A DNA stretch of 64,000 nt from an uncultured Oligoflexia bacterium (GTDB taxonomy: Bacteria > Bdellovibrionota > UBA1018 > CAYHWW01): positions 846 through 64,845 of the forward strand of contig CAYYYP010000011.1 in assembly GCA_964475985.1 (NCBI GenBank), written 5' to 3'. The notes under the pieces were generated by a model that saw only the letters and a list, made by a program, of their open reading frames with translations, was not told the DNA's origin and made no database searches. Of this stretch, positions 11,159-27,947 are shown piece by piece; within the stretch, counting starts at the first letter, position 1; each line of letters starts with the position of its first letter. The translations under genes were made by a program, and so were the position numbers.

Positions 11159-12444
11159 AAAAGCACCTCGCGCTCAAATCCGTTATAAAGTGAAACAATC
11201 TCGACCCCCTCATTTACTTTGGCTTGCGACCCCTCTTCAGGAAAAATGACCCAACAATTAGCGTCGAGAAGAGAACTCACCATGTAAGAGGCTTGTCCTT
11301 TGAGTGCTTCCACGGTGATTCCGTTTTTTTCAAATGTCGCTGTTCCTTTAAAAAAGCACCGTAGTCCTTCTGGCTTTGGGCAGTCGCGAGCAAGAGTTGC
11401 AAGGATCGATCGTTCCCTTTCAAGTCCAAGGCTTGCTCTGATAAATGGCTCTATAAAAAACCTTAAACCAACAGCTGTTGAGACTGGGTTTCCGGGTACT
11501 CCAAAAAAAGCACACTTTGTTTCGGTGGATGTATCAAGTTCAGCAAACAAGACAGGCTTTCCTGGGCGAATTGAAACTTTATGAAAATAGGTCTTAGCGC
11601 CCATTTCATCTAGAACCTCAGGGACAAAATCATATTTTCCCATCGAAACAGCCCCTGTGCTGATAATGAGATCGGCTCCCTCTGAAAGAACACTTTCAAG
11701 ATACTCTTTGTAGAGTTTAGGCTCATCGCGCACAATACCTATGTAATTTGCCTCAATGCCAATCCTTGAGAGAGCCGCTTTCAAAAACGGACCTGTGGAG
11801 TTACGAATCATTCCCGGTTGAAGGACCTGCTCGGCGGGCGAGACAAGCTCGCTTCCAGTAGAGAGAATCACCACCCTAGGCATCCTCTTCACAGGAAGAG
11901 TTGTAATCCCAAGGCTTGTGCACGCGAGAATATGCTCTGGCGTGATTCTCACATTTTTAGGGAGCACCAATTGCCCTTTAGAAAAGTCTGTTCCCAAAGG
12001 TCTTACGTTTTCCGCAGCTTTTACGGGCTTCGAGATTAAAATGGTTTCTGCCTGACTATTAGAAGCCCGATTCACTACAACGTCCTCGATGCGAACCACT
12101 GCATCGTAAGAATCAGTTGGCAGAGGTGCTCCTGTCATGATTTCAACAGCGGTGCCCGATTTGTTCCGATTAGCGTCTTCAAAGGCTCGAAGGTCGCCCG
12201 CAGCAACAAGTCCATGGACTGGAATGCGAATTGGTTCACTTTGAGTTGCGCCATGGGTATCTGAGGCTCGTACTGCAAATCCATCCATAGCGGAATTGGT
12301 AAATGATGGAACATCTTCTGGACTTAAGATCGGGTGTGCTAGAATTTTTCCGATCGCTTGAGAAATTGAAAGAGTTTCAATGCGAGGTTCACGTGATCTT
12401 CCTACTTCTTCTAAAATCTGAAGCGCTTGCTTGTATGAGATCAT
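11155..12444 (-). CDS. moeA: Molybdopterin molybdotransferase
   Basis: SAMDGFAV, IMTGAPLP, STGSEL, GAVSMG.YD, IRPGKP, GVPGNPVS. Confidence 0.95.
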   Translation of the reverse strand: MISYKQALQILEEVGRSREPRIETLSISQAIGKILAHPILSPEDVPSFTNSAMDGFAVRASDTHGATQSEPIRIPVHGLVAAGDLRAFEDANRNKSGTAVEIMTGAPLPTDSYDAVVRIEDVVVNRASNSQAETILISKPVKAAENVRPLGTDFSKGQLVLPKNVRITPEHILACTSLGITTLPVKRMPRVVILSTGSELVSPAEQVLQPGMIRNSTGPFLKAALSRIGIEANYIGIVRDEPKLYKEYLESVLSEGADLIISTGAVSMGKYDFVPEVLDEMGAKTYFHKVSIRPGKPVLFAELDTSTETKCAFFGVPGNPVSTAVGLRFFIEPFIRASLGLERERSILATLARDCPKPEGLRCFFKGTATFEKNGITVEALKGQASYMVSSLLDANCWVIFPEEGSQAKVNEGVEIVSLYNGFEREVLL

Positions 12445-13586
12445 GATTCTACCTCCGAAATGGCAAGGACTTTGGGATGCATGGCTCTGAGTGCAAGCTC
12501 AAGAAGAACACCAAAGCCCAGCACCCAAAGAAGGTTGCTTGTGAGCGCTGTAATAAGGATTGCCCCGGCGATTTTAACTACGCCAAAATCAGAGCGAAGC
12601 GTGGGGGCTGCAAGCTTTAGATGAAAAAGCCCTGTGGTCATGAGCAGAATTGAGACAAGAATTGTGGGATAGATTAAGACATGAGCGCCTTTTGCAAATT
12701 GGATGGCAGCTAAGAAAAGTAGGACAAATCCCATCATGGCTGTAGACCATGGACTTTTTGATCCGCCTCGAACATGGGCCGTGACACCACCTGAGCCGTG
12801 GCAAAAAGGCATTCCACCCAGAGCACCAACAACCAGGTTTCCAATACCGATGGAATACAACAGCCTACGCACGGTGACCCGAGAAGCTTTCTCCCCAAAG
12901 TAGCGAGAGCAGACATCTTTGGTGGCTAGCACTGAATTTGCTGAAGTGAGAACAATTTGAGGAATAAGAAGCCCTAAGATCAAATTGAGCCTCATTCCCT
13001 CGAATCCGGTTTGTTGACGGGCTTGAAAGGTTGCTCCTGCAGGAACGAGTTGGGGTGAGAAAACTGCGATCACAAGACCTACTGTCGCAAGCAGTCCCAA
13101 TACAGGAATTCCTCGTATTTCAGGGAGCAAGAGCATGAACAGAGCTCCTCCGAAAACAGCGATGCCCAGAGTGTGAGTCGTCAGAGCCTCCCAGCCTCCG
13201 AACGCCTTAACGCCCTGTAGGATCAGAAGAACGCCTAACCCTGCTTGCAGTTCATGGATCAAGCTACTCGGTACTCTCTTTGCGATTTGATCCACATTCA
13301 AAAAGCACATCAGAAGGCAATAAACCCCAAGAAGCATTCCACTGATTCGCACTTCTGCAAAACTAGCTCCCGCCGTCACTGCTGCTATGGCAATGGATTT
13401 TAATGGCTGAACGGCCATGGGTACTTTGAATAAATAGGCTGAAACAATGTAGGTAAGTCCCGTTGTAAAAAGAATCACAGGTCCAGAAAATCCTGCCTTC
13501 ATGGAAAGTAGTGCAAGAAGAGGAAACAGGACTGCACCGTCAGAAAAGGCACCCAAGAAATTTCTAAACGCCTCCTTCCATTTCAT
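12441..13586 (-). CDS. MOT1-type molybdate/sulfate transporter; start moved to MKWKEA
   Basis: GAFSDG..FP, PMAVQPLKSI, GGMPFCHGSGG...H MOT1 motifs; ATG at 13586 overlaps the moaC stop. Confidence 0.8.
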   Translation of the reverse strand: MKWKEAFRNFLGAFSDGAVLFPLLALLSMKAGFSGPVILFTTGLTYIVSAYLFKVPMAVQPLKSIAIAAVTAGASFAEVRISGMLLGVYCLLMCFLNVDQIAKRVPSSLIHELQAGLGVLLILQGVKAFGGWEALTTHTLGIAVFGGALFMLLLPEIRGIPVLGLLATVGLVIAVFSPQLVPAGATFQARQQTGFEGMRLNLILGLLIPQIVLTSANSVLATKDVCSRYFGEKASRVTVRRLLYSIGIGNLVVGALGGMPFCHGSGGVTAHVRGGSKSPWSTAMMGFVLLFLAAIQFAKGAHVLIYPTILVSILLMTTGLFHLKLAAPTLRSDFGVVKIAGAILITALTSNLLWVLGFGVLLELALRAMHPKVLAISEVES

Positions 13587-14632
13587 GGGTGACCTCCTCC
13601 GCTGGCTACATGAAGACAATGAGAAATGAGATCTCCAGCGTCCTCTAAGGATTCTTTGACAGCATTGGGACTTCCTGGAAGGCAAAGAATAAGGACACCT
13701 TGAATGAGATAAGCGCATGAGCGGCTAAGCCACGATTTTTTAGTGTAGCTGGCACCTGATTTTCTTAAGAGCTCTCCAAAGCCTAGGATTTCCTTTCCAC
13801 CAAGATCCTGGCTTAAACTCAACACAGTTTCAGGTGTGATGTCTCGTGTGGAAATTCCCGTGCCACCGCTTGTAATAATGACACGCACTTTTTTGCTTTC
13901 CACCAAACGCCTAAGCTCTTTCTTAAGCATTTCTGAGTCGTCCGGAAGAATGAAAGTGCTCTCGATCTTTGCGCCTTCGGAGGAGAGCCACTTTGAAGCT
14001 AAAGGCCCTGAAAGATCTTCTGCTTCTTTTCTAAAGCATCGATCGCTCAGTGTAATGACAGAAGCGCTTACACCTTGCAGAGACTTCTCTTTAGTTTTAT
14101 CTAGAGATGCGAAAATTGATTCTTGCGGTGAGCTTTCTGGATGACGCCAGACACCTGATTTTCCGCCTTCTTTTAGCTCAAGGCGAACGCTTCCAATTCT
14201 AAGTACCGGGTCGATTCCTTTAGTGAGATCATAAAGGCAGAGCAGCGCTGCATTCACGCCCGAGAGCGCTTCCATCTCCACACCCGTTTTGCCAATTGTT
14301 TTTGCTTCGCAAAATACTTGGATATGATCTTGATGAAGCTTCATCCAAACTCTCACTGAGGTCAGCGATAACGGGTGGCAAAGAGGAAGAAGCGTTGAGG
14401 TGAGCTTTGCACCTTGAATTCCAGTGGCCTCTGCTAAAAGAAGGACATCGCCCTTAGGAAGAGACTTTTCTCTGATTCTCTGAATGGTATCCTTTTTGGC
14501 GAAGAATATACCTGAGGCAACTGCACGCCTCTGAGTATCTTTTTTCTCCCCAATATCGATCATCCGAAAGGATGCTGCTTCGCTAGCCACCGATGGCTGC
14601 AAGGTTCCATGTGTTTCCATAATTTCCTTCAT
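13583..14632 (-). CDS. moaC: MoaC-MoaB/Mog fusion
   Basis: MIDIGEK..T.R.A.A, LPLCHP, TGVEMEAL, EKxGG-like LKEGGKSG; C-terminal ITLSDR, SGGTGI..RD.TPE, LPGSP. Confidence 0.9.
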   Translation of the reverse strand: MKEIMETHGTLQPSVASEAASFRMIDIGEKKDTQRRAVASGIFFAKKDTIQRIREKSLPKGDVLLLAEATGIQGAKLTSTLLPLCHPLSLTSVRVWMKLHQDHIQVFCEAKTIGKTGVEMEALSGVNAALLCLYDLTKGIDPVLRIGSVRLELKEGGKSGVWRHPESSPQESIFASLDKTKEKSLQGVSASVITLSDRCFRKEAEDLSGPLASKWLSSEGAKIESTFILPDDSEMLKKELRRLVESKKVRVIITSGGTGISTRDITPETVLSLSQDLGGKEILGFGELLRKSGASYTKKSWLSRSCAYLIQGVLILCLPGSPNAVKESLEDAGDLISHCLHVASGGGHP

Positions 14633-15566
14633 GTAGAAAATGAGAGACGGGCTTTCCTAAAATAAGCCGCTGAATCTCGTGAGTGAGTGCTTCTTGAGAG
14701 TCGTCTGAGCTTAAGTAGCGCCGTAGTGAAGCGTCTCCATCGCCAAAAAGGCAAAGTCTCAGTGCTCCTCTGGAAGACACTCGAAGCCTGTTACAAGTTT
14801 TGCAAAAGTCTTTTGAGTAAGGTGCGATAATCCCAATTGTGCCCAGGTAGTTTGGATGCTCATAAGTCACAGCAGGACCATCATCCACTTTGCGAGAAAC
14901 AGGTTTCCATCCAGCCTTTAGAAGCTCAAATTGAACAATGCCTCCTGAGAGATGTTTCTCGTCAAAAAGGGCTTGGTTTTTACCCGTGCGCATGAGCTCA
15001 ATAAACCTTACACTGATGGGCCGATCTCTAACCCATTCCATAAAGTGAGAGAGCTCATCGCCGTTACTCCCTTTCAGTAAAACAGCATTGATTTTTATGT
15101 TTTCAAACCCAAGCGTCAAAGCGTGCTCAATTCCCCGCATGACCTCACTAAAACGATCCATGCCTGTAATCCTATAAAAGCGATCAGGATCAAGGCTATC
15201 CAGGCTTACGTTGATGGAGGTCACGCCTGCATTTCTTAGGGGGAGCGCAAGCTCTCTGAGCCTATTGCCGTTAGTTGTAATCGCGATTTTTTTGATTTGA
15301 GAAATGCAGGAGATTGCAGATGCGATCTCAACTAAGTCTCGTCTCACGGTGGGTTCTCCACCCGTAAGCCTGACCTTTTGAATCCCGAGGCGAGAAAATC
15401 CTTGAACAAGCCTTGTGATTTCATCTACTGAGAGTTCAGAGTCTTGGGAGAGTGGACCTTGATAGCCATTGGGTAAACAATAGACGCAGCGAAAGTTACA
15501 GCGATCCGTTACCGAAAGGCGCAGATAGACAAATTGTCTTTCATACGTATCAACTAGTTTGTCCAA
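14583..15566 (-). CDS. moaA: GTP 3',8-cyclase; true start is probably TTG at 15566
   Basis: YLRLSVTDRCNFRCVYC, TGGEP, FCKTCNRLR, C-terminal GG; SD GGAAAGGAG lies 7 nt before the TTG. Confidence 0.95.
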   Translation of the reverse strand: MDKLVDTYERQFVYLRLSVTDRCNFRCVYCLPNGYQGPLSQDSELSVDEITRLVQGFSRLGIQKVRLTGGEPTVRRDLVEIASAISCISQIKKIAITTNGNRLRELALPLRNAGVTSINVSLDSLDPDRFYRITGMDRFSEVMRGIEHALTLGFENIKINAVLLKGSNGDELSHFMEWVRDRPISVRFIELMRTGKNQALFDEKHLSGGIVQFELLKAGWKPVSRKVDDGPAVTYEHPNYLGTIGIIAPYSKDFCKTCNRLRVSSRGALRLCLFGDGDASLRRYLSSDDSQEALTHEIQRLILGKPVSHFLHEGNYGNTWNLAAIGG

Positions 15567-15573
15567 TCCAAGT

Positions 15574-15715
15574 CTCCTTTCCAAAAACCGGGAGGCGTCA
15601 GTGTTTCCACTCATACCCTGGCACGCAGATGAGTTAAGTCACTCATCCAAACCGTGCGGCCCAAGTCTCCTTGTCACTTTAAAAAATGGGTTAGGAGCTA
15701 AGGCTCGGAGTTTTT
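15574..15715 (-). ncRNA. Moco riboswitch (MOCO RNA motif)
   Basis: Minus strand shows the conserved blocks in order: ACTCCGAGC, CCTAA, GCCAGGGT, GGAAAC, GCCTCCCG, GGAAAGGAG, directly before moaA. Confidence 0.85.
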
Positions 15716-15724
15716 CTAAAACGT

Positions 15725-16012
15725 CTATGTGGTGACCTTTTTTTCTTCCTCTTCCACAACAATGCCTGCCCTCAATTCTTGCTTGTTTTGAGGAGAAATC
15801 GAAGGATCTACCTTTTGTTGTCCTTGTCCAATTTGTAGCGGCTGCTGCTGAGACGGGCCAGATTCAAAAGGACTGCGACCGCCTTCGGTTGCCGCTTTAA
15901 AGGCACGAATCGCACTCCCCATGCTGGCCCCCAGCTCTGGCAGCCTTCTTGATCCAAAAAGAAGAGCAATGAACCCTAAAATAATTAAATGACTGGTACT
16001 TAACCCTAACAT
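15725..16012 (-). CDS. tatA: Twin-arginine translocase TatA/E subunit
   Basis: MLGLS..HLII...IALLFGSRRLPELG.SMG.AIRAFK. Confidence 0.9.
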   Translation of the reverse strand: MLGLSTSHLIILGFIALLFGSRRLPELGASMGSAIRAFKAATEGGRSPFESGPSQQQPLQIGQGQQKVDPSISPQNKQELRAGIVVEEEEKKVTT

Positions 16013-16033: not shown

Positions 16034-16759
16034 TTATTTAGTGCATCCTACGGAGCCTCCACAGCTCATCTCGGCTTGATCAGCACTATCTCCACCAAGC
16101 CAACTTTCTTTTTCGACTTCCACGCCCAGCTTCTTGCATTCTTCCGCTACAAGATCCTTGCAGTACTGGAACACAGCGGAATAAAAAGAGCTTGAACTCA
16201 CTCCTGGTCGCTCGCAGATGGCTCCTATGAATCTTCCTAAATGGTCTTTTAAGAACTTTTTTCTGGCATCTAGGACGATCTCGATTCCTTCCTCATCGGA
16301 AGCTTCGATGAGAAGTGTGCTCTTCAATACTAAAAGAGCATAGAACTCGAGCTCAACGGATACGTGATCGAGCATCTCGGCCTGAACTCCATCGCCACCT
16401 GTCTCAAGTCCAAAGGCTCGGTAGAATCCCGCGATATCGACAAGCTGAGTGCCTTTGACCATGGCACGCTCACGCCCATACTCAGATTCATAAAGTGAGT
16501 TGACCTGTTTACCTCGGTCAAAAGAATCAATGTACTCGGAGCGAAGGTCGTCTAGGATCTTTGCGCTCCCTAAGACATCCGAAAGCCTTGCCTTGAGTTC
16601 GCTTAAGCGAACTCTCATCGAATCACTTAAGCCTTTTTCTAGGTCTCCGCTCTCAAGAAGCGTTGGCACGTTTTCCTGAAACCCATCACCGGGATAGGAA
16701 GCCAAGAGTGAGGCCAAAACAAATCTGGGTCCTGAAGAATCTTGTCTAACGTCAATCAT
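16034..16759 (-). CDS. TorD/DmsD/NarJ-like molybdoenzyme chaperone; start moved to MIDVRQ
   Basis: YESEYG, DIAGFYRAFG, DHVSVELEF, FLKDHLGRF; ATGA overlap with the gamma subunit. Confidence 0.85.
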   Translation of the reverse strand: MIDVRQDSSGPRFVLASLLASYPGDGFQENVPTLLESGDLEKGLSDSMRVRLSELKARLSDVLGSAKILDDLRSEYIDSFDRGKQVNSLYESEYGRERAMVKGTQLVDIAGFYRAFGLETGGDGVQAEMLDHVSVELEFYALLVLKSTLLIEASDEEGIEIVLDARKKFLKDHLGRFIGAICERPGVSSSSFYSAVFQYCKDLVAEECKKLGVEVEKESWLGGDSADQAEMSCGGSVGCTK

Positions 16760-17631
16760 TTTTGATTTCCTCCACCGCTTGTCAATTGAAGGGGAACCCA
16801 AGCCATGGTGACGCATTTTCTTGCACCCACTTCTTGTTTCGCTCCTTGCCATACGGCAAACGCGACAAAGCTATCCTTTGTCGGATCAAGTACTGAGCCA
16901 TTCTCTCGTTTCAATGGCCTTGCAATCACGACAGACCATTCACCCTTACTCCAAACGCCGTGACCAATAGCCATTCTGTTTTCAATGACTGAGCTACTTC
17001 CAAAGCCTTCAGCAAAAATCTCGTCAACTGCACTTGCTTTTGCGTAGGATTGAGGATTGCCTTCAGCTTTACCAGGCGAGTAGATTTCTCTTTTTTCTTC
17101 CGTCAGCCCCTTGACCTTTCCTGGATCTTTAAACTCCATGGGATACATATCCGGATTCATATTGGGATAGAGATCCTTCATCTCTGGTTTTCCCTTTTCT
17201 AAATCCCTTTGATACTGCGCTCGCCAATGAAAGATGTGTACAGGGTTATCTTTCGCGCCCATGAAAATCGGAGGAGGAGAGCCTTCTTTCACAGGAAACT
17301 GAATGGCGACCGCATCTGAAAATTCTCCTAATTTTCCTGCCTCTGCTTTTTGATCCGCATGCCACTTAAGCCTAAAGGCTATCCATTTTCCGTCTTGTAA
17401 GGATTGCACTTGAAGGGCCGCAGTGGTGGTGGTCTTTGGCCTTGGGATCGCCATGGGCTGAGCCATGAGCGAAACGTTTTCTGATTTCACATCCTTCCAG
17501 AGAGACTCATCGAAGGCCTCTTTAGAAAGATCATGCGTGGTCTTTTGAACCTTAATTTCACTAGCAAATAAGCTTGCCTGAGAGAAAAAGGCAAAGCCTA
17601 CGACTACTAGTGTTGCATATCGAATTTTCAT
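16756..17631 (-). CDS. Heme-b gamma subunit, ethylbenzene dehydrogenase EbdC/NxrC-like
   Basis: Signal peptide, IAFRLKW, FSDAVAIQFP, IFMG...PVHIFHWRA, AFAVWQG...E.GARK; SD AAGGAGG. Confidence 0.8.
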   Translation of the reverse strand: MKIRYATLVVVGFAFFSQASLFASEIKVQKTTHDLSKEAFDESLWKDVKSENVSLMAQPMAIPRPKTTTTAALQVQSLQDGKWIAFRLKWHADQKAEAGKLGEFSDAVAIQFPVKEGSPPPIFMGAKDNPVHIFHWRAQYQRDLEKGKPEMKDLYPNMNPDMYPMEFKDPGKVKGLTEEKREIYSPGKAEGNPQSYAKASAVDEIFAEGFGSSSVIENRMAIGHGVWSKGEWSVVIARPLKRENGSVLDPTKDSFVAFAVWQGAKQEVGARKCVTMAWVPLQLTSGGGNQK

Positions 17632-17672
17632 ACGGGGTAAACCTCCTTTCAACACGCCACGACTCGAAAGAA

Positions 17673-18809
17673 CTATGGTGTGTTGTTCCTAATTGCTCCT
17701 AAGTTTTGGTCATAAGCTGTGCGATCAATCATGGGCTCAGTAACGGGAACACTCACGATCTCATCTCCTTTTTCGTCATAGCCGTAAGCAATGCCGCTTT
17801 TTACTTTAAAGGAGTGAATGATCCGATCCGTACTTCCCATGAGAACCAATAACCCTTGCGCTACAGGGTCTTCGTGAAGCTTCTGATAGCGACCAATGGC
17901 TTCATCCACAAGTGGCCCAAACATTTGAGTGAGATACTCCCGGTTCGCATGAACGGGTGGAATGTAATAGATATTCGGCTCAAGCCCAAGCTGTGGGTAA
18001 TACGGAAGAGCAAGTCCTTTCTTATGAATAAGGTAATCAACTGGGTTATCCTCGCGTGCCTTCCACGGCGGGTTGACGAAACCCATAATGCGAATTTTGC
18101 CAATGCAGTTTTGAACACACATCGGTTGATATCCCTTTTCAACGGCTGGATAGCAGCCCACGCACTTTTCGCTTGTGCGCGTGTAGGCGTTGTACATTGA
18201 TTTCTTGTAAGGGCATGCCCTCACGCATTCGCCGTAGCCTTTGCAGCGGGATTGGTCGATTAAGACAATTCCATCTTCCTCGCGCTTATAAATTGCTTTT
18301 CTTGGGCATGAGGCAAGGCAAGCGGGATAAGTGCAATGAGCACACGTTCTTGGAAGATAGAAAAACCAATTGTCATGAGGAAGACTTAGGTGCTCACCTT
18401 TTGCGACATTTCCCGTGCAGTCATCTTCTCCGTTATTCGGGTACATCCAATCTTCATCAGTGGGATGAAAGTTAACCACTCGCTCATTAGGCTCAGTTGC
18501 TTCAAAAATCGTTTTACCACGATAAGGTTCATGCTTTGCCCATTGCTGATGACCAAGCTTCTCAAGAACTCTCACGTCCCAAGCTAGGGGGTAACTTCCA
18601 TAGGGCTTTGTCTCTACGTTGTTCCAAAACATGTACTCTTGGCCTTTGCCACTGGTCCAAGTGGTTTTGCAGGCTAAGGAGCAAGTCTGGCAGGCAATGC
18701 ATTTATTGAGATCAAATACGATGGCCCACTGTCTTTTGGGGCGATTCTCCTCGTAGGGATATTCCATTTCACGATTGAGATGCCAGTTCTTTACTTTTGC
18801 CATAATCAA
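17673..18809 (-). CDS. Fe-S beta subunit of a type II DMSO reductase family enzyme (NxrB/NarH-like)
   Basis: CIACQTCSLAC, CAHCTYPAC..SC, CKGYGECVRACPY, CVGCYP...CVQNC; WNNVETKPYG. Confidence 0.92.
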   Translation of the reverse strand: MIMAKVKNWHLNREMEYPYEENRPKRQWAIVFDLNKCIACQTCSLACKTTWTSGKGQEYMFWNNVETKPYGSYPLAWDVRVLEKLGHQQWAKHEPYRGKTIFEATEPNERVVNFHPTDEDWMYPNNGEDDCTGNVAKGEHLSLPHDNWFFYLPRTCAHCTYPACLASCPRKAIYKREEDGIVLIDQSRCKGYGECVRACPYKKSMYNAYTRTSEKCVGCYPAVEKGYQPMCVQNCIGKIRIMGFVNPPWKAREDNPVDYLIHKKGLALPYYPQLGLEPNIYYIPPVHANREYLTQMFGPLVDEAIGRYQKLHEDPVAQGLLVLMGSTDRIIHSFKVKSGIAYGYDEKGDEIVSVPVTEPMIDRTAYDQNLGAIRNNTP

Positions 18810-21800
18810 TTACCCCTTTCTCTTCATGAACCGGCCTTTGAGATACTCTTTCATTGCCTGGTTTTCGTAAGTTGGTCTAAAGCCAAGAGATGCTGGCCTC
18901 CAAAGCCCTTCGCCGTTCATTCCGCCTTCTTCAGCTTTTGTGATGCGCACAAATGCCTCGCGAGGAGCTCCTACTGGACAGTGGATGTCTGGAGCGAAAC
19001 CTTTTTCGATTCCTTGTCCAAACATTCCCTTATGGACAAGGGTATCAGTCATGAGTGTAGGTCTAAGCCATGCGCGAGTAGCACTTTGGTGACTTCCGTA
19101 CCGGTACATCGACTGATAATTGGTTTCAGCACTTTTGGCTAAGCCGTCAGGACGGCTCTCTTGAGCCTTCACACTCCCAAAGGTCGCGCCATACATGTTA
19201 TGCCAGGTCCGTGCGATCCCTCGAGGAGTGCCAGGATAGTACCTGGCTCTGAGCATGAGTCTTGCGACTTTGTATTCTTCAGTGCCCTTTTTCCAATTCC
19301 GATAAGGTCTGTCTTCCGGATCAGCATCGATATAGACGTAATCTCCGTCTTGAATTCCAAGCTCTTTTGCATCCAGTGGATTGATATCCACATAGCCTTC
19401 AACGTTGGATGGCATCCTTTTATCGTGTCGATACACATCGCCAAACGGTCCAAACCAAATCGCAGTGTAATCGGTGTCAATTGGAGTGGAATGCGCTCCA
19501 TGCCGATACTTTGGAGTATGATAGACGTGAGTATGAAGCTTCAGTCGGAGCGGATGCTTTGAGGCTAGAACTTCATCCGTGGTCATCTGAACATTTCTTA
19601 CTTGTCTTGCTTCACAGGAAAGGTCGCTTGATTTTAAGCCATAATCCTCAGGCGTCTTAGGACGAATACCTTCGTGTTTTTGCCCCACAAGGACGTTGGG
19701 TTCATGCGGAGTGGAGTCAACTGGTTCACGGTAAACAACAATATTTTCTCCGCTGTCAATGAACTCCTGCTCAAATCGATAAAACTCAAGTCGCCCAGAT
19801 TTCGTATGCCAGGGCTGCTCGGATCGTGCTTGCTCATAAGAGGACACTCTCGGGTAGGTTCTTGAATTCATGATTGCAGGAATCCCTTGTTTTGCTTTAG
19901 CCTCAAGGTCTGCGATGTTGTAGCCCTTCAAAGTAAAGGAGTGATCAATGATCCTTTGCAAGTACTCTTCAACATTGTTTTCAAGGGCAAACTTCCAATA
20001 GTCCTTCATCCTAGAATCACCCACAACCTCTCCAAGACGCTTTGCCACGCCAGCGATGACTTCAATATCGCCTTGAGTGTCAAAGATTCTTGGGAGATCG
20101 GAGCGAGGAAAAATCTGCACAAATGGATTTGTGTACGACCCGCACATGTCGGGGTAACGAAATTCAGCCCAGCTATCGATGGCAAAAACTAGATCAGCGT
20201 ACTCACAAGAGCCTGTCCACCACCAATCGGAGTAAGCAATAAACTCGATCCGAGGAAGCGTGTTATTGACGACATCAAAGTGCCATTTGACGTTCCCGAT
20301 AACGGAGTTTGAATTGTTCAGCCACATGCTTTTCGTAGGCGCTGGAAGATGGCCTTTTCCGGTGAAAAGTTTATTACCCACTCGAAGAGGACGCTCTCCA
20401 TAGTTGAAATAATGGAGTGATTCGTAATGCGCATACTTCTTTAAGCTGATCTTGCCGCCTTTTTTAAGCTGCGGATTGAATGGGTCTTCTGCAATGTACA
20501 TTGGCTCGCCGCCAAACAGAGCTGACCGATAATTACCGGAAAAGCTACCCACGTTGCCCCCCGGAAATCCTACGTTTCTTGTCAATGCGCCTAAGAGAAA
20601 AAGTGCTCGGTCTTTAAGATCTGAGTTAAAAAACTGATTTGGCCCCATGCCACAAGCAATGATGGTTCCCTCTCTATTGGCTGCCATCTGCTCAGCAAGC
20701 GAGGTGATGGCTTTTTTCGGCGTACCTGTGATTTGAGAGGTCTGCTCGGGAGTAAAGTTCGCGTTCAAATATTCTTTCATGAGATTAAATACGGTGCGAA
20801 CCTTTACTTTTTTGCCATCAAGAAGTGTTACCTCACGGGCCGCAAAAAGATCGGCATGAACTTGTTTGCCTTTGTGATTTTTTCCATAGTCATCTCGGCT
20901 CACTGGAACAAGTTTTTTAGTCTTCTTGTCAATCACGACTGAAGACCTAAAATCACCTCTCATCGATTCTGGTGCAAATTGTGTTTTTTGCTCAAGAGGG
21001 GGAGGATTTGATTCTCCTTTTTTAATAAATTGAATGGACTCAAGCTCAGGCTCTTTAAATCCAGCGATCACTTCATCAGGGCGCAATGGTTGAAGAGTAT
21101 CCATCCGGACCAAAAAAGGTAGATCCGTACTCGTTTCCACAAAGTCACGGTCATAAAGATTCTTTGACATGATGACTTGAGCCATCCCCAGCGCAAAGGC
21201 TGGATCAGTGCCTGGACGAATGACAACCACTTCATCAGTCTTTGAAGCCGTTGCACTGTATTCCACGGTAATAGCAACAGTCTTTACACCCTTAAGCCTT
21301 GCCTCGGTTAACCAATGGGAATCGGGCATCTTGGTCGTAATCCAGTTCATGCCCCAGACCAGCACCAACTTTGCTCGCTCAACTGTAAAAAGATCAAAGT
21401 CATTACTTTGCTCACCAGTCACCATCGGATGCCCTGGCGGAAGATCGGTGTGCCAACTGAAACTATCCCAACCCCTAGCCCCCACCGCTTCATCAGGGCC
21501 AACACCACGGTTTTTTGAATCTAGTAGCGCCATCATGTTAGCAAAGCGATAAAGACCATAGAACCGTGTTGCACCAATGAAAGCCATCCCTCCACGGAAT
21601 TTGAGAGTCTGAGTGCCAGCTCCTTCCATCGCGTGAATCATGGATTCATCGTAGCCTTGAGTTTTTAAGAGCTTCGCGCCAGCTTCTCCCGAGTAGGTCT
21701 TGCTGATATTGGCAAAAGCTTTAGCAGCGTAATCGTAAGCATCCTCCCAACTCACTCTGAGCCACTTATCTTTTCCTCGTTGAAAGTATTTTTGATCAGG

Positions 21801-22295
21801 AGCTCCGGATACGGAGTCCCGAGGAAAGTCCGCTTCAACCCATTCTTTAAATCCGCGTCTGACCATTGGGGCCTTTACCCGACGATCGCCATAAAAACGT
21901 CTCACAAGTGCAAGCCCTTTTTGGCAGATCCTAGGGTCCCAGCGATGAGAAGCTTTATTGCCATAGAGGTCAGTTGCTTTTCCGTACCCGTAACTTGGCC
22001 CAATTCGGGCAACCACGCCGTTTTTCACATAGGATTTAAGTAGGCAATTGTGAGTGTCATTGGGCGCACATAGAAAAACAAAGCTTGAGTCGTAATCAAA
22101 AATATTCCGGTATGCTTTTTCCCAATCGCGATTGGGATAGAAGGCGAGAGGATTATCCACCTGTGTAGGCTTAAAGTACCGAATCGGCGCTCCAAAAAGC
22201 GTTCGACTGGAGAGCGCTGCACCAACTACAGCCATTCCTTGTAAGAATTTTCTGCGACCTTCGTTTGCTCCGCCATTGTTGCCTTCATCACTCAT
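18810..22295 (-). CDS. Tat-exported molybdopterin alpha subunit, periplasmic NXR/NAR-like (Nitrospira/anammox-type lineage)
   Basis: Tat motif GRRKFL, FS0 motif CAPNDTHNC...RICQKG, Mo-ligand region [21 protein letters not shown]. Confidence 0.88.
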
Positions 22296-22339
22296 GTCTC
22301 TCGTCTCCTCATCACGTCTCTTAAGTCACGGCTCAAGTT

Positions 22340-22729
22340 TCATTTCGTCTCTTCTAATTCTTTTGATAAATCTTTTGCCTCTCCACTTGATTGCGAGAGG
22401 ACCCTCGTGCTTGGCCACTCCAGGCTCAAATTAGCTAGAATTGCGCCTCCCTGTCCCAGACGAAGTGCCGCTCGCCATCCGTTAGCGCGTGCTAACCAAA
22501 TGCCCTCGGCATCTGCTTCAAGAGAAAGCTCATTGCCATTCATTTGAACTCTGCACTTTGTCCCTGGAGTCATTGAAGATAGACTTCCTACAACAACCCA
22601 AGCGTCTTCTAACTTACGATCTTTTTCTTTATGCCAAGGCATGAGCTCTCGAAGTCTCTCAAGATCAATCTGATCGGTGAGGCTATGACCAAATCTTTGG
22701 AAAAAATCTCTCCTCGAGAGCCCACTCAT
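22340..22729 (-). CDS. Hypothetical protein with twin-arginine-like N-terminus
   Basis: MSGLSRRDFF; in operon with the molybdoenzyme. Confidence 0.65.
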   Translation of the reverse strand: MSGLSRRDFFQRFGHSLTDQIDLERLRELMPWHKEKDRKLEDAWVVVGSLSSMTPGTKCRVQMNGNELSLEADAEGIWLARANGWRAALRLGQGGAILANLSLEWPSTRVLSQSSGEAKDLSKELEETK

Positions 22730-23583
22730 GTTGAGCCTCCATAGACCGCAAGCGGGCTAGAGTCTTTGGCTAGGATTTCTGGGAACTTCTTTGCGAGCTC
22801 TTTACAAAAAGAATCATGAAGAAGTTTTCCGCCTGCTCCACAAAGCACCCCCTCATCGGTTTCAAGTCGGTAATAAAGAGCTCCCTCTGAAAAGCCATCG
22901 ATATGAAGGCAAACTCTCATCTTCTCAAAGCGCTTCGAGATCTCTTCCAACTCCTGAGTTAATTCTGAAGGCACGGGTCCATATTTTTTTAATGAGGTTG
23001 ATTTGGATGATCGCTCTCGAGAAACCACGCGAGGAACGGAGTAATTCTCGGCAAAGAGAACATCCACACACTCTTGATCCCCGTGACCTAAACTACGATG
23101 TCTTGCCAGGCGCTCCGTATCACCGGCCCCCATGATGAGGCCATCCAGCGCCTCGCGCCAGTAATCACAGCCAAAGCTCTTAAGAGCGGAGAGTGAGACA
23201 CATCCTTTTCTTTCAAGCACGAGCGCCTCGTTGTGAGAGCGCCATTGTCTTTGAAAACAAGGAATTTGAGTGCTCGCTAGGATTTCTGATAAATCCGAAG
23301 TCTCAAGACTTAAGCCTAAGAATCTAGAAACACTCACGCCGAGTTGCCGGCTATAATCGAAAACTTTTCTTAGAGCTTGATCTTGCAGCGCCTTTGGAAC
23401 CTTTGACAAAAGATCTAGTTCTCGGGCGGCTAAGGATTTATCTCCGATCGCCTCTGATTTGCCTTTTTCAATTAGAAGAGATTGAAGCGCCGAAAGTCTT
23501 GCCTTCTGCCAACGAAGGCCAAAGTCTTTCGCGTTAAACTCGGGATGCTCACAAACTCTGATGGATGTTGATTCTGCTTTCAT
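22726..23583 (-). CDS. Hypothetical Cys-containing protein of the molybdoenzyme operon
   Basis: 285 aa with 4-nt overlaps to both neighbours. Confidence 0.7.
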   Translation of the reverse strand: MKAESTSIRVCEHPEFNAKDFGLRWQKARLSALQSLLIEKGKSEAIGDKSLAARELDLLSKVPKALQDQALRKVFDYSRQLGVSVSRFLGLSLETSDLSEILASTQIPCFQRQWRSHNEALVLERKGCVSLSALKSFGCDYWREALDGLIMGAGDTERLARHRSLGHGDQECVDVLFAENYSVPRVVSRERSSKSTSLKKYGPVPSELTQELEEISKRFEKMRVCLHIDGFSEGALYYRLETDEGVLCGAGGKLLHDSFCKELAKKFPEILAKDSSPLAVYGGST

Positions 23584-23783
23584 AAGCTCTCAAATCTGCT
23601 GTGCGAAGCGCGTGCCAAGTTGTCTGCTCGCCGCAGATAGCCTTGTGTTGCCAAATAGAGGCGATCACAAGGCACAAAATGTCCCGTAAGCGAGACAGGA
23701 TTTCTCGTTTTGGAAAGTGGGACTTTCCAGAAGTGGAGAGCGGCAATTTCTAAAATCTGGTGCCGAAAATCTTCTCTTAGCAT
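23580..23783 (-). CDS. Small hypothetical protein, first gene of the molybdoenzyme operon
   Basis: 67 aa; GAGGA SD; ATGA overlap with the next gene. Confidence 0.5.
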   Translation of the reverse strand: MLREDFRHQILEIAALHFWKVPLSKTRNPVSLTGHFVPCDRLYLATQGYLRRADNLARASHSRFESL

Positions 23784-23817
23784 GTCCTCACGGTATCGCG
23801 AGGCTACGGACTTCAGG

Positions 23818-23833
23818 TATGATCTGGGTCATA
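23818..23833. promoter_or_regulatory. Crp/Fnr-type palindrome TATGA-N6-TCATA
   Basis: TATGATCTGGGTCATA between the divergent molybdoenzyme operon and the Crp/Fnr gene. Confidence 0.7.
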
Positions 23834-23849
23834 CCGATTCCGACATATT

Positions 23850-24608
23850 TTGCGTCAAATAGAGAGTAAGAAAATGAATGCTCATAACGAACGAGTTCAA
23901 AAAACAATCACAAGTGATCTGAGAAGTCTTAGGTGCACGGCAGGTCTACCTTCCGAAGTACAGGCACTTCTCGCCTCCGTTGCTGTGAAGCGAAGATTCA
24001 AAGCAAATGAGTACATCTGGGAGATGGGTGATCCTGGAGAGTTTTTAGCCATTGTGCAATCAGGGCTTGTCGAAGTGGCTCGCTATTCCAGCGCTGATGA
24101 AGAAATGGCGATGGGTGTGTTTGGCCCATCCGATGTGATTGGAATCTCTGCCGTTATGAAAAAGACAGTCTATCCGGGAAGTGCAAGAGTTATTGCTCCA
24201 GGATCAGAGCTGATTAAACTTTATCTAAGACCTGTTCTTCAGCGCAAAGATCCCATCATCGCGGAAGTCCATACCTGGATCAGAGAGATGATGCTTCTCC
24301 ATGAACAGGTCTTAAGAGATAAGATTGATATTTTAAACGCAGGAAGCGTTGAAAGCAAAGTTTTCGAGCTCTTCAATCATCTCATTAGAAGATTTGGAAA
24401 GCACGAATCTCACTTGCGTCATTTTATTCCCATTCAACTCACACGAGCTCAGGTTGGAAAGCTTACAGACGTTCGCGTTGAAACAATCATCAGACTTATA
24501 AGTCGGTGGCAAAAGCAAAAGCTCGTTCATTGGACAAAAGACGGGATTTTGATCGAAAACCTACCTCTACTTGAAAAAAGTTTAACTCGAAATAGAAGGC
24601 TAAAATGA
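23850..24608 (+). CDS. Crp/Fnr family transcriptional regulator (DNR/NnrR-like context)
   Basis: cNMP-binding-like domain and C-terminal HTH (LTRAQVGKLTDVRVETIIR); no FNR Cys cluster. Confidence 0.88.
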   Translation: MRQIESKKMNAHNERVQKTITSDLRSLRCTAGLPSEVQALLASVAVKRRFKANEYIWEMGDPGEFLAIVQSGLVEVARYSSADEEMAMGVFGPSDVIGISAVMKKTVYPGSARVIAPGSELIKLYLRPVLQRKDPIIAEVHTWIREMMLLHEQVLRDKIDILNAGSVESKVFELFNHLIRRFGKHESHLRHFIPIQLTRAQVGKLTDVRVETIIRLISRWQKQKLVHWTKDGILIENLPLLEKSLTRNRRLK

Positions 24609-25846
24609 AAGAAACCTTTTTTTCTAAAATCGATCCTTACCAAATCCTCTTTCCGCTAGGGCTTGCTCATGCCATTTTTGGGGGCTCGCTTTGGATTTTA
24701 TTTTCCTTAAAGCTTGCACCATACCCAGGCCCACTGCATGCGCATCACATGGTGGATGGATTTTTGCTTTCCTTTGCCGCAGGTTTTTTGCTGACCGCAA
24801 TTCCTAGGTTTACAGGCGCTGATCGCTCTTCGCCCACGGAGCTTATGATCGCTACTGCGCTTTCAGTTCTTTCCTTTTTTGAATCAAGGTCAATCGTAGC
24901 TTTTGGAATGCTTTTATTTCTTTCCACCTTTTTTGGAAGACGAATCAAAAAAAGAACGTTTTCGCCACCACCTCATTTTTTGTTTCTACCTATTGGCCTT
25001 TTGCTTGGGTTATCGGGATCGGCGCTTTTGTCTCTCGTGCAATTTGGCTTCATTGATGCCCGGTGTTTAACTGCAGCGCGTCTATTTCTCTATTATGGAA
25101 TGATGCTTTCTTTTCTCTTAGGCATCGGAGCAAAGCTCATTTCGGCACTCCTTGGATGGACAGCACCGCCTACGCATCGTATCGAGCCGCTAAACTCACT
25201 CAATCGTCCTCAAAAACTAAGCTCAAATAAGTGGGTCATTCCATCAACTCAAGGCGCGGTCTTTCTTTCAAGCTTTGCCATTGAACTTGCCGTTGCACCC
25301 GGAGTAGGAAGGGCGATTCGAGCCTCTTGTGCCACCTGGATAGGAATTCAAAATTGGAAGCTCTATAAAAAGCCGCAAGTGCAAGGAAAGCTTCCTTTTT
25401 GGCTTTGGATTTCGGCCTGGTTTTTAATCTCTGGTCTTTGGATTCACGCACTCTTCCCGTCTTTAGGTATCCATGCAGCGCATCTCATTTTTATCTCAGG
25501 CTTTGGATTGATTACGATGCTTGTTGCTTCAAGAGTGACGCTCGCCCATGGAGGTTATTCACTTGAACTTGAATCCAGATCCAAGATTTTTGCCACGACA
25601 AGCTTGCTCATTATCCTAGCCGCTTTAACAAGGGTAACTGCCGCCTGGACACCGACCTATTTCCAGCACTTGGCATATGCAGGAGCAGTTTGGGTCATTT
25701 CGATCTTGGGTTGGAGCGCTTTCTTTTTACCGAAAATCCTCTTTCATTCGACCCATATTTTCTCATTTAGGAAAACCTGGAGCAAATACAGACGCTGTGT
25801 TTGCGGAAAGAAGCATCATCATGGAACACAAGACGCGCAAATCTAA
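24605..25846 (+). CDS. nnrS: NnrS family membrane protein (NO response)
   Basis: HAHHMVDGF...F..GFLLTAIPRFTG, H..FISGFG, SRVTLAHGG. Confidence 0.85.
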   Translation: MKETFFSKIDPYQILFPLGLAHAIFGGSLWILFSLKLAPYPGPLHAHHMVDGFLLSFAAGFLLTAIPRFTGADRSSPTELMIATALSVLSFFESRSIVAFGMLLFLSTFFGRRIKKRTFSPPPHFLFLPIGLLLGLSGSALLSLVQFGFIDARCLTAARLFLYYGMMLSFLLGIGAKLISALLGWTAPPTHRIEPLNSLNRPQKLSSNKWVIPSTQGAVFLSSFAIELAVAPGVGRAIRASCATWIGIQNWKLYKKPQVQGKLPFWLWISAWFLISGLWIHALFPSLGIHAAHLIFISGFGLITMLVASRVTLAHGGYSLELESRSKIFATTSLLIILAALTRVTAAWTPTYFQHLAYAGAVWVISILGWSAFFLPKILFHSTHIFSFRKTWSKYRRCVCGKKHHHGTQDAQI

Positions 25847-26252
25847 ACCTCCTCTCATTTATTCCTGCTCAGGCTGCTCCAGTGCCGCACAGCTCGCTAA
25901 TAACCTTGCCATTAAGGCAGATCGCGAGGGATTAGCCGAGATGTCTTGCATTGCAGGCGTCGGAGGAGATGTTCCATCCTTAATCAGAGTCGCAAAATCA
26001 GGCCGCCCGATTGTAGCCATTGACGGTTGTCCGCTTCGTTGTGCCGAAAGCTGCTTAAAAAGGCATGGTGTCACACCTTCGGTTCATTTTACGCTGTCAG
26101 ATTTTCAGATTAAAAAGACCTTTCATCAAGAATTTGCTCCGAACGATTCAGAGAAGGTTTATTCAGAGATTAAGCCTAAAATCGAAGCGCTGCGCTCCCA
26201 AGAAGAAGACAAAGAAGAGGGCTCGGATTCGGAAGATCAGGAGGGATCTTAA
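25821..26252 (+). CDS. DGC-domain putative zinc-binding protein; start moved to MEHKTR
   Basis: YSCSGCS, MSCIAGVG, IDGCPLRCA. Confidence 0.85.
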   Translation: MEHKTRKSKPPLIYSCSGCSSAAQLANNLAIKADREGLAEMSCIAGVGGDVPSLIRVAKSGRPIVAIDGCPLRCAESCLKRHGVTPSVHFTLSDFQIKKTFHQEFAPNDSEKVYSEIKPKIEALRSQEEDKEEGSDSEDQEGS

Positions 26253-26253
26253 T

Positions 26254-27033
26254 GTGAATCCTTCTTTCCCAGGTGCCGCTTTTTGCCCCATCATTTATGG
26301 TCCCGTGCAAAGTCGAAGGCACGGAAGATCTCTCGGAGTGAATCTAGGGATTCCTCATCAAAAGATCTGCACCTGGGGCTGCATTTATTGCCAATGTGGA
26401 ATGGGCGAAAGAAGAGAGATTAAGCCCACCGAACGGACTGTCTCAGCAGAAGAGATTATTTCTTTAATTGAAATTGCTCTAAAAAGAGATCCCAAGATCG
26501 ATTCGATCACTTTTGCTGGAAATACCGAACCAACAGCGCACCCTGGTTTTCTTGAAATTATTCAAAGTGTTTTGAAACTGAGGAGGGATCTTCAAGGCCA
26601 GTGGATCATCAATTGCCTCACTAATGGCTCGGAACTGGATCGACCCAAAGTCTTAGAAGCATGCGCTCTATTAGATGACACATGGACAAAGCTCGATTGT
26701 GGGATTGACGACCTTTTTCAAAGACTCAATCGCCCTCTTTCTCGAATTGGTGGGATTAGAGGACACGTTGAAAGAATCAAAAAGCTGAAAGCAATTTCCA
26801 TTCAAACTTTAGTGTGGCGCTCGGATGAAAACCCACAGCTATCCAATTGGACCAATGGAAATAGGAATGCTCTTCTTGAAATCTACTCTGAGCTTAAACC
26901 AAGAAAGATTCACCTAACCACGATTGCTAGAAATCCTGCTGTACCAACGCTAAAGGCCGTACCTAAAAGTGAACTCCTGGAATTTTCGGCTCAGGTAAAA
27001 GGACATGGGCTCGCTCTTGAGGTCTTTGAATGA
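26254..27033 (+). CDS. Radical SAM protein (COG0731-like); probable GTG start
   Basis: YGPVQSRR.GRSLGVNL, CTWGCIYC, ITFAGNTEPT.HP. Confidence 0.85.
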   Translation: MNPSFPGAAFCPIIYGPVQSRRHGRSLGVNLGIPHQKICTWGCIYCQCGMGERREIKPTERTVSAEEIISLIEIALKRDPKIDSITFAGNTEPTAHPGFLEIIQSVLKLRRDLQGQWIINCLTNGSELDRPKVLEACALLDDTWTKLDCGIDDLFQRLNRPLSRIGGIRGHVERIKKLKAISIQTLVWRSDENPQLSNWTNGNRNALLEIYSELKPRKIHLTTIARNPAVPTLKAVPKSELLEFSAQVKGHGLALEVFE

Positions 27034-27947
27034 CAAAGACCCTCGTTTCACCCAAGTTTCATCTCAGCGCCTTACGAGATGAAAAAACTATTTCGGTCTT
27101 TGGGGTGCTTTTTTATTGGACGCTTCTAAATTACTACCACTTACTAAAAATAGAACACTTTGTCGTGGGACTACTTACAGTGATTCTTTTCTGGGGGGGT
27201 GAGAAGCTTTCCAAATGGCGGGCACTTGTATTTCCCCTCCTTCTGACGGGTATGGTCTATGATAGTCAACGCCTCTATAGCGATCTTCTTCGAGGGACTA
27301 TTCACGTCGTAGAACCATATCGATTTGATCGATACTTTTTTGGAATAAGGTCGGCAAATCAGATCGTAACTCCCAATGAATGGTGGCAGCTTCATCTTCA
27401 TTCACTTTTAGATTTTCTATGTGGATTTGCGTATCTTATTTTTATCCCTGAATTTTTCTTAGTCGTATTTTATTTTCTCTTTTGCTTGGGAGAAAGGGAA
27501 TCAAAGCTTGCCCGCCAAATGAGTTGGGGATTTTTTTGGCTCAATGCTTTAGGCTACAGCACTTATTACTGGTACGCGGCTGCTCCACCTTGGTATGTCG
27601 CTGAACATGGCTTTGGTCCCGCAGATCTGACTACATCAGCTAGTCTTGGCGGCTGCCTCAGGTTTGATCAAATCATTGGGCTTCCCATTTTTAAAACCTG
27701 GTATGGACACTCTGCTGATGTTTTTGGCGCGATTCCATCTTTGCATGTGGCTTATCCGTTCTTAGCCTTCATCTACGCACTGAAAGTAAAGAAGCTTCGC
27801 ATTTGGAGTCTATTCTTTTTCGTTTTGGTATCGTTTTCAGCTGTCTATCTCAATCACCACTACATCCTCGATATTCTCTGGGGTACAGCTTACGCTGTCA
27901 TCATTGGGTTTATGCCTGAGGTACTGAGTCGCTGCAGGGGCACGTAG
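27030..27947 (+). CDS. PAP2 superfamily, Aur1/IPC-synthase-like membrane phosphotransferase
   Basis: AAPPWY, FGAIPSLHVAYP, VYLNHHYILD. Confidence 0.8.
   Translation: MTKTLVSPKFHLSALRDEKTISVFGVLFYWTLLNYYHLLKIEHFVVGLLTVILFWGGEKLSKWRALVFPLLLTGMVYDSQRLYSDLLRGTIHVVEPYRFDRYFFGIRSANQIVTPNEWWQLHLHSLLDFLCGFAYLIFIPEFFLVVFYFLFCLGERESKLARQMSWGFFWLNALGYSTYYWYAAAPPWYVAEHGFGPADLTTSASLGGCLRFDQIIGLPIFKTWYGHSADVFGAIPSLHVAYPFLAFIYALKVKKLRIWSLFFFVLVSFSAVYLNHHYILDILWGTAYAVIIGFMPEVLSRCRGT

Follow-up and report, generated by a model that had tools for sequence, protein, structure and literature searches.

The window analysed here is a 64,000-nucleotide stretch of DNA from an uncultured Oligoflexia bacterium (contig CAYYYP010000011.1), and the subject of this work is a molybdoenzyme operon on its minus strand. 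Between 7.4 and 23.6 kb of the window, a minus-strand gene string encodes up285, up129, the alpha, beta and gamma subunits of the enzyme, a chaperone, TatA, a molybdenum (Mo)-cofactor module, a 458-amino-acid (aa) open reading frame (ORF) and a c-type cytochrome (Table 1). The segment 16034-22295 (-) spans exactly the chaperone gene through the alpha gene and encodes four proteins. Judged by its sequence, the locus is a soluble periplasmic alpha-beta-gamma molybdoenzyme of the nitrite oxidoreductase (NXR) lineage. An earlier sequence-only reading of this DNA had listed a twin-arginine translocation (Tat) signal, a CxxxDxxxC FS0 motif, an HTD Mo-ligand region, an EbdC-type gamma subunit and a TorD-type chaperone, and all of them were present at the positions given there, on the minus strand.

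The alpha subunit starts with a twin-arginine motif (GRRKFLQG) followed by a hydrophobic stretch, and both R14 and R15 were invariant in nine diverse homologues. We infer that alpha is exported to the periplasm via Tat. The FS0 site consists of C76-x3-D80-x3-C84 (CAPNDTHNC) plus C124, a ligand set of three Cys and one Asp. The Mo-ligand region is H282-T283-D284, with D284 as the Mo ligand and N79 as the substrate Asn. C76/D80/C84/C124, N79 and D284 aligned with C67/D71/C75/C115, N70 and D275 of Kuenenia NxrA, in which these are the FS0 ligands, the substrate-binding residue and the Mo ligand, respectively (PMC8387239). The FS0 ligands, the substrate Asn and the Mo-ligand Asp were kept in 84 of 84 related alpha sequences, whereas the type II outgroups aligned with them have Cys in place of the FS0 Asp.

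When alpha was compared with the Protein Data Bank (PDB), it matched Kuenenia stuttgartiensis NxrA (7B04) end to end with 912 bits (E = 3e-273), and the next matches were PcrA (181 bits), NarG (140 bits) and EbdA (127 bits). Alpha scored below every curated NCBIfam cut-off, with 280 vs 985 bits for TIGR03479 and 146 vs 1084 bits for TIGR01580 (NarG). These scores agreed with the earlier placement in the periplasmic NXR lineage and not with the cytoplasm-facing NarGHI. In the substrate-channel comparison suggested in the same reading, the substrate Asn and the Mo ligand were retained, as were the Lys between the pterins (Kuenenia K917, window K929) and Kuenenia His1020 (window H1032). All 84 sister-clade sequences had T at the position of Kuenenia N312 and G at that of Y528, and the residues at the tunnel entrance varied.

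The beta subunit has no signal peptide and, for this reason, would be co-exported with alpha. Its bit scores were 381 to Kuenenia NxrB, 221 to PcrB, 206 to EbdB and 176 to NarH. Gamma carries a Sec-type signal but lacks a membrane helix at its C-terminus. Its best match was Kuenenia NxrC at 81 bits, and in the alignment to 7B04_C its M132 and K280 fell on the NxrC haem ligands Met155 and Lys305. The domains PF00384, PF13247, PF09459 and PF02613 follow one another in consecutive genes, which is the layout of type II dimethyl sulfoxide (DMSO) reductases. As with alpha, the other subunits scored below the cut-offs of the Pcr/Clr/Ser/Ddh/Ebd models (TIGR03479/03478/03477 group): beta 263 vs 481, gamma 144 vs 170 and the chaperone 61 vs 152 bits. 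From a 93%-identical relative (locus L003), the probable true starts are 18803 for beta, 17631 for gamma and 16759 for the chaperone; started there, the chaperone is 241 aa long, as is its L003 orthologue.

Taken as a whole, the complex has the same architecture as the canonical NxrABC of Kuenenia (7B04; Chicano et al. 2021, PMC8387239), and the two have the same FS0, Mo and haem ligands throughout. It differs from NxrABC in its 41% alpha identity, its position outside the canonical clade and its tunnel. Domain annotation covered most window ORFs of 100 aa or more, short ORFs overlapping larger ones being excluded. Among the ORFs scanned, none looked like the additional cytochrome genes found in the anammox nxr cluster (no search aimed at NXR-T itself was made), and none carried a NarI (PF02665) or NarK-type domain, as the sequence-only reading had also reported. 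With NarGHI (E. coli 1Q16) the enzyme shares the type II family, the Asp Mo ligand, the substrate Asn, the logic of the Fe-S relay and a NarJ-type chaperone. Unlike NarGHI, which it matched at only about 140 bits, it has a predicted Tat-exported instead of a cytoplasmic alpha, three Cys and one Asp at FS0 instead of the three Cys and one His of NarG, and a soluble EB_dh haem-b protein as gamma instead of the dihaem membrane subunit NarI. The Pcr/Clr/Ser/Ddh/Ebd enzymes (PcrAB 4YDD, EbdABC 2IVF) resemble it in being periplasmic, Tat-exported, soluble alpha-beta-gamma complexes with an EB_dh gamma of Met/Lys haem ligation that exchange electrons with c-type cytochromes. The type II outgroup sequences standing in for them, however, carry the Cys at the FS0 Asp position and are separate in the alpha tree.

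The alpha tree was a neighbour-joining tree of 101 sequences and 1135 columns with 100 bootstraps. The search for cluster representatives yielded mostly fragments, and look-up named only Gaiellaceae, SAR202, Tectimicrobiota and a few outgroups. The tree was built without Nitrospira and Nitrospina sequences. Kuenenia NxrA was transcribed from PDB alignments, and the Nitrotoga-type NxrA (about 1100 aa) was joined from six reading-frame pieces of locus L086, so that identities to it are slight underestimates. The joined sequence has the published Nitrotoga signature Y-4x-D-11x-QM. A search with a Nitrotoga N-terminal fragment returned short fragments only. The published NxrA alignment (supplement 3, PMC8387239) was machine-read with many letter errors and was used as a motif lead only, not in the tree; in it, the Nitrotoga and Hydrogenobaculum rows have N-terminal motifs in common with the window, including SHRW[DE]PRIC. 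In L086 (Nitrosomonadales metagenome-assembled genome (MAG) GCA_016721605.1, 8000-13600), Nitrotoga-type nxrA and nxrB are split into many reading-frame pieces, and in L085 the Nitrotoga nxrA lies at a contig end, with the contig stopping inside the gene and transposase fragments flanking it. This picture agrees with reports that Nitrotoga has duplicated nxr loci.

The whole NXR lineage stood apart from the remaining type II enzymes (100% bootstrap), and the grouping with non-nitrogen type II DMSO reductases that would have spoken against the earlier placement was not seen. Kuenenia, Tectimicrobiota and another representative (P0123) formed a clade (100%) with the window alpha outside it. The window alpha belonged to an 85-sequence clade with Methanoperedens and sulfur bacteria, and the Nitrotoga-type (69%) and Gaiellaceae (85%) sequences branched just outside this clade. 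Members of the canonical NXR clade are about 60% or more identical to one another (PMC8387239), while the window alpha was 41.2% identical to Kuenenia NxrA; its identity was 58.6% to Methanoperedens and 51.4% to the Nitrotoga-type sequence. Kitzinger et al. (2018, mBio, PMC6050957) described a sister clade of the Nitrospira, Nitrospina and anammox NXRs that consists of the Nitrotoga NXR and mostly putative periplasmic nitrate reductases (NARs). From sequence and tree, the window alpha is a member of this already described sister clade, and not of the canonical Nitrospira/Nitrospina/anammox clade. The match to Nitrospira and anammox NXRs drawn in the sequence-only reading thus stood for the architecture and failed for clade membership.

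The gene content also follows that of the sister clade, which has a Tat alpha with the C-x3-D-x3-C FS0 and Asp Mo ligand, a NarH-like beta, a soluble EB_dh-type haem-b gamma, a NarJ-like chaperone and no NarI or NarK. A periplasmic NAR of Hydrogenobacter thermophilus has been characterised (Kameya et al. 2017, as cited in PMC6050957). In Ca. Methanoperedens, a NarGH-Orf7 complex was described, and its nar cluster was highly transcribed in nitrate-dependent methane oxidation (Arshad et al. 2015, PMC4683180). The Methanoperedens locus in our set (L039) runs alpha (Tat motif TRRNFIKIS), beta, NarJ, EB_dh, HCO-II-like, NapH-like and a second HCO-II-like gene, the same arrangement as the published NarG(Tat)-NarH-NarJ-Orf7-HCOII-NapH cluster. 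The window differs from it in having no HCO-II or NapH-like partner; its operon is linked instead to genes for a monohaem cytochrome c and for a full Mo-cofactor pathway.

Within the sister clade, the window alpha fell in a Bdellovibrionota+Myxococcota subclade of its own (100% bootstrap; 98% for the Bdellovibrionota part), where it paired first with the 93%-identical contig L003 and next with the sequence from an Oligoflexia genome (both at 100%). The window enzyme thus adds a new member to a clade that has already been described and discussed. Beta identity was 75-95% within the subclade and 51-63% outside it. Close alpha relatives (69-93% identity) made up more than 120 clusters, mostly without a name, and the named ones were mainly metagenome-assembled Bdellovibrio, Oligoflexia, Pseudobdellovibrionaceae and Bdellovibrionota. 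In a scan of one genome per species, alpha relatives occurred in at least 563 species genomes of many phyla. Among the best 80 of these, the 65-79% band held Bdellovibrionota and Myxococcota/Polyangiaceae, and the 55-61% band held Chloroflexota, Acidobacteriota, Planctomycetota, Ca. Methanoperedens, Thioploca, Thiomargarita, Parabeggiatoa, Omnitrophota and many others. Literature on Bdellovibrionota and nxrA yielded survey papers only, with no specific description found.

L003 (GCA_013558375.1, contig JACCDG011097521.1, 44.5 kb) is syntenic with the window from nirK to the Mo-cofactor genes. Its assembly numbers contigs past one million and may be a metagenome, or the contig may come from bacterial contamination of a large eukaryotic genome assembly. 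A few contigs within the Bdellovibrionota subclade have other bin labels. Four loci with the subclade-type operon and its clade-specific upstream gene (L008, L009, L010 and L018) were binned as Planctomycetota, Bifidobacteriales, Nitrospinota and Acidobacteriota, and these labels are probably binning errors rather than transfers.

One modest novelty of the subclade is its conserved Cys-rich gene upstream of alpha, up285, which sets it apart from other sister-clade members. Of 28 Bdellovibrionota+Myxococcota loci, 25 (drawn from L001-L025, L056 and L067) had a homologue of up285 immediately upstream of alpha, and no locus outside the subclade had one. The family had 72 members of 250-290 aa, with 38-39% identity in two comparisons; the few named ones are all called 'hypothetical protein'. 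Pfam, NCBIfam and member-wise Pfam scans found no domain in it. C109, C128, C139, H162, C172 and C248 are invariant in the family. The AlphaFold2 (AF2) model of up285 had a predicted local distance difference test (pLDDT) score of 86.7 and gave weak fold matches to Bet3/TRAPPC3 and H-NOX (E = 3e-4 to 2e-2, template modelling (TM) score 0.28-0.47), a fold group that also includes V4R domains. As a guess, up285 might be a sensor or a maturation factor. The start of up129 overlaps the stop of up285 by 4 nt, and the two are translationally coupled. The up129 protein starts MSGLSRRDFFQRF, a Tat-like twin-arginine motif (SRRDFFQRF) with no hydrophobic stretch after it, and homologues were found in L003, L005 and L011 only.

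Table 1. Position of the molybdoenzyme operon and of the features around it in the window
Feature	Position	Strand	Basis or remark
Monohaem c-type cytochrome, periplasmic, 130 aa, CMTCH motif, signal peptide	7437-7829	-	PF00034
Mo-cofactor module (moaA, moaC-moaB/mog fusion, MOT1-type molybdate transporter, moeA, moaD-like, moaE, mobA, DUF7009)	9411-15614	-	Pfam
TatA/E translocase subunit inside the operon	15725-16012	-	PF02416; conserved in L003 and L005
NarJ/TorD-type assembly chaperone (delta)	16034-16852	-	PF02613 at 59 bits; TIGR03482 at 61 bits, below cut-off
Gamma, EbdC/NxrC-type haem-b protein	16756-17655	-	PF09459 EB_dh at 106 bits
Beta, four Fe-S clusters, no signal peptide	17673-18809	-	Fer4_11 (PF13247) at 103 bits
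Alpha, catalytic subunit with molybdenum-bis(molybdopterin guanine dinucleotide) (Mo-bisMGD), 1161 aa	18810-22295	-	PF00384; 912 bits full length to Kuenenia NxrA 7B04_B
up129, small ORF, 129 aa	22340-22729	-	no family match
up285, first gene of the operon, Cys-rich, cytoplasmic	22726-23583	-	no Pfam family
Divergent promoter region with two palindromes	23712-23835	.	sequence; GGAAAGTgggACTTTCC at 23712-23728, inverted repeat at 23816-23835
Crp/Fnr-family regulator, divergent	23850-24608	+	PF00027 and PF13545
NnrS, membrane protein associated with nitric oxide (NO) and denitrification	24605-25846	+	PF05940 at 117 bits
Radical-SAM gene and PAP2-family gene, 3' of nnrS	26065-27947	+	kept in L003, there with an added DGC-domain gene
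NirK with C-terminal cytochrome c domain, NirV-like FGE-sulfatase protein, SCO1/SenC copper chaperone	31017-33947	+	TIGR02376, PF03781, PF02630

The genes for the chaperone, TatA, the molybdate transporter and the full Mo-cofactor pathway are co-directional with alpha-beta-gamma, and they are predicted to be co-transcribed with the enzyme subunits. The Mo-cofactor module also lies 3' of the chaperone in L001, L003 and L004. In L001 (Bdellovibrio sp.), modABC precedes the operon, and a small protein of the Oxidored_molyb (sulfite-oxidase-fold) family at 22090-22617 and an NIT-domain chemoreceptor from 23402 lie 3' of it. Homologues of the 130-aa cytochrome c occurred in 13 related loci, and in L002 a homologue of 53% identity lies directly 3' of the chaperone. 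This recurrence fits a soluble enzyme that exchanges electrons with c-type cytochromes, and the window cytochrome is a candidate redox partner of the gamma haem.

The co-location with NirK and NnrS noted in the sequence-only reading was confirmed by the matches to TIGR02376 (366 bits vs a cut-off of 296) and PF05940. The nirK-nirV-senC trio adjoins the operon in the window and in L004 (Pseudobdellovibrionaceae), nirK is also beside the operon in L003, and nnrS with a Crp-family gene occurs in the window, L003 and L005. Farther along the window, where GC is higher and the tetranucleotide content is atypical, lie the genes for two very large secreted proteins: one of 1145 aa with HEAT repeats (45432-48869, -) and one of 1148 aa with Ig-like, fn3 and laminin-G domains (53644-57090, -).

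The Crp/Fnr box that had been claimed alongside NirK and NnrS did not hold; there is instead a Crp/Fnr-family gene with a degenerate palindrome. The canonical pattern TTGAT-N4-ATCAA with up to one mismatch occurred five times in the window vs 3.6 expected, and none of these sites was in a promoter region. The nearest FNR-like site is a palindrome with three mismatches, ATGATCTGGGTCAT, at 23819-23832, which lies inside the perfect 7-bp inverted repeat GGTATGA-N6-TCATACC (23816-23835), about 48 bp before ATG 23874, the probable true start of the regulator. The inverted repeat is kept in L003, where the other palindrome of the promoter region has one arm mismatch (GGAAAGCctcACTTTCC). Perfect FNR-type boxes were found upstream of the operon in L004 and L017, and a promoter and terminator scan of the window gave signals at or below chance. 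The regulator itself scored far below the FNR cut-off. As judged from its single Cys, it is a protein without an FNR-type Fe-S cluster and not an oxygen-sensing FNR.

From its gene context and from the nearest physiologically anchored relative, the Nar of Methanoperedens, we consider that the enzyme probably works as a periplasmic respiratory nitrate reductase that feeds NirK, in a Bdellovibrionota host. The Methanoperedens Nar is the best physiological anchor for the window enzyme. The context that speaks for nitrate respiration comprises nirK-nirV-senC, nnrS and the Crp/Fnr-family gene in the window and in related loci, the NIT-domain chemoreceptor and modABC of L001, the perfect FNR-type boxes of L004 and L017 and the recurring c-type cytochrome. 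The 85-sequence clade also includes MAG sequences of Thioploca, Thiomargarita and Parabeggiatoa, sulfur bacteria that store and respire nitrate. In the pathway we propose, electrons would leave the quinol pool via a cytochrome bc1-type complex or alternative complex III, and would then pass through the small c-type cytochrome (7437-7829) to the gamma haem b, along FS4 to FS0 and to Mo-bisMGD. Nitrate would be reduced to nitrite in the periplasm, so that no NarK transporter would be needed, and nitrite would be reduced to NO by the neighbouring NirK-cytochrome c fusion. Control and the handling of NO stress would fall to the Crp/Fnr-family (Dnr/NnrR-like) regulator and NnrS. Energy would be conserved upstream only, and not by a redox loop of the NarI type. 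Like other enzymes of the NXR lineage, this one is expected to work reversibly, in a direction set by its redox partners and by physiology.

Several points weigh against nitrate reduction as the physiological role. The sequence does not reveal direction; the sister clade also includes Nitrotoga (51% identity), which is a true nitrite oxidiser, and Met/Lys haem b and a c-type cytochrome are high-potential carriers that would suit nitrite oxidation equally well. Only 3 of about 28 subclade loci showed linkage to nirK, two of them close relatives, and nirK is common in nitrite oxidisers too. The earlier reading had argued from context that nitrate reduction is favoured; the direction of this argument was supported, but the co-location with NirK is weaker evidence than it implied, because many nitrite oxidisers also carry nirK. 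The quinol-to-cytochrome c link lies outside the window. Within 300 nt upstream of the operon there is no TTGAT-N4-ATCAA with up to two mismatches, the window as a whole lacks a canonical FNR box, and all members of the Bdellovibrionota+Myxococcota subclade found come from uncultured sources. The tree is by neighbour-joining only, Kuenenia is the sole biochemically characterised canonical NXR in it, and its Nitrotoga sequence was stitched from a frameshifted assembly. Kuenenia NXR, moreover, runs both ways (PMC8387239).

The same points bear on the possibility that the enzyme is mainly a nitrite oxidoreductase, turning nitrite into nitrate and passing electrons via haem b and cytochrome c to a terminal oxidase, so that a heterotroph or predator living aerobically or microaerobically could detoxify nitrite or gain additional energy. 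The window enzyme shares its lineage with all periplasmic NXRs and has the identical ligand set, the Nitrotoga NXR lies within the same sister clade, enzymes of the lineage are bidirectional, the Met/Lys haem b is a high-potential site, and a COX1/FixO-like oxidase gene pair lies near the locus in L004. However, the Nitrotoga-type sequence falls outside the 85-sequence clade that unites the window with the nitrate-reducing Methanoperedens, with modest bootstrap (61-69%). The Crp/Fnr-family regulator and the FNR boxes of relatives suggest induction at low oxygen, the functions encoded nearby consume nitrite and NO, and the relatives are spread across many heterotrophic phyla not known as nitrite oxidisers. 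We therefore regard predominant nitrite oxidation as unlikely.

A more speculative version, which we hold to be rather improbable, is that the enzyme in Bdellovibrionota and Myxococcota is a truly bidirectional NXR, with oxic or microoxic nitrite oxidation via cytochrome c to a high-affinity oxidase and with up285 as a dedicated sensor or maturation factor. If this were true, some predatory or heterotrophic bacteria would be unrecognised nitrite oxidisers or detoxifiers, and up285, with its V4R/H-NOX-like fold, would set when or in which direction the enzyme works.

Another substrate, such as chlorate, perchlorate, selenate or an organic or sulfur compound as in other type II members, would agree with the scores below all curated cut-offs, which leave no curated model that names the enzyme, and with the tunnel residues that differ from Kuenenia (N312 to T, Y528 to G and a variable entrance); the Asn at the substrate position also occurs in non-NXR outgroup sequences and does not discriminate. 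Yet alpha scored 912 bits to NxrA vs at most 181 bits to PcrA and EbdA, its position in the tree is far from the type II outgroups, no ORF scanned in the window matched the chlorite dismutase family, lineage members of known function all act on nitrate or nitrite, and the genomic neighbours are nitrogen-oxide functions. Such a substrate is thus very unlikely.

The sequence-only reading spoke of a mobile copy. Least probable of all is that the operon was acquired recently on a mobile island or a plasmid and would therefore say little about host physiology: a Prim-Pol with MarR-like tail (726-2906, -), a serine recombinase (37261-37845, -; GC at third codon positions (GC3) 0.62) and a DUF222/HNH endonuclease gene (52035-53324, -) do occur elsewhere in the window, subclade contigs were binned under several phyla and Methanoperedens obtained its copy by lateral transfer, but the mobile-type genes are about 15 kb or more from the operon, which does not stand out from the window in GC, GC3 or tetranucleotide content, the window has no tRNA gene (operon-flanking repeats were not searched for), the best plasmid homologue is a haloarchaeal megaplasmid protein of only 48% identity, and the Bdellovibrionota subclade has 98% bootstrap with conserved synteny including the clade-specific upstream gene. 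From these features of the sequence, we see no evidence of recent mobility of the operon.

The locus shows, in good resolution and within its complete operon, an NXR-like periplasmic enzyme of the kind that receives the label 'nitrate reductase / nitrite oxidoreductase alpha subunit' in metagenome pipelines. With relatives in so many species genomes and phyla, nxrA or K00370 counts cannot be equated with numbers of nitrite oxidisers. The sequence-only reading had made this warning about nxr-based surveys, and it is valid but not new, as others have noted it; a 2025 estuary study found many phyla with periplasmic NarG/NxrA near Nitrotoga, with the direction unknown there. Bdellovibrionota and Myxococcota have their own conserved version of the enzyme, and up285 is a tractable lead into the assembly or regulation of these enzymes. 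If the enzyme reduces nitrate as we propose, a probable Bdellovibrio-like bacterium would have a respiratory nitrate reductase, with NirK encoded by neighbouring genes.

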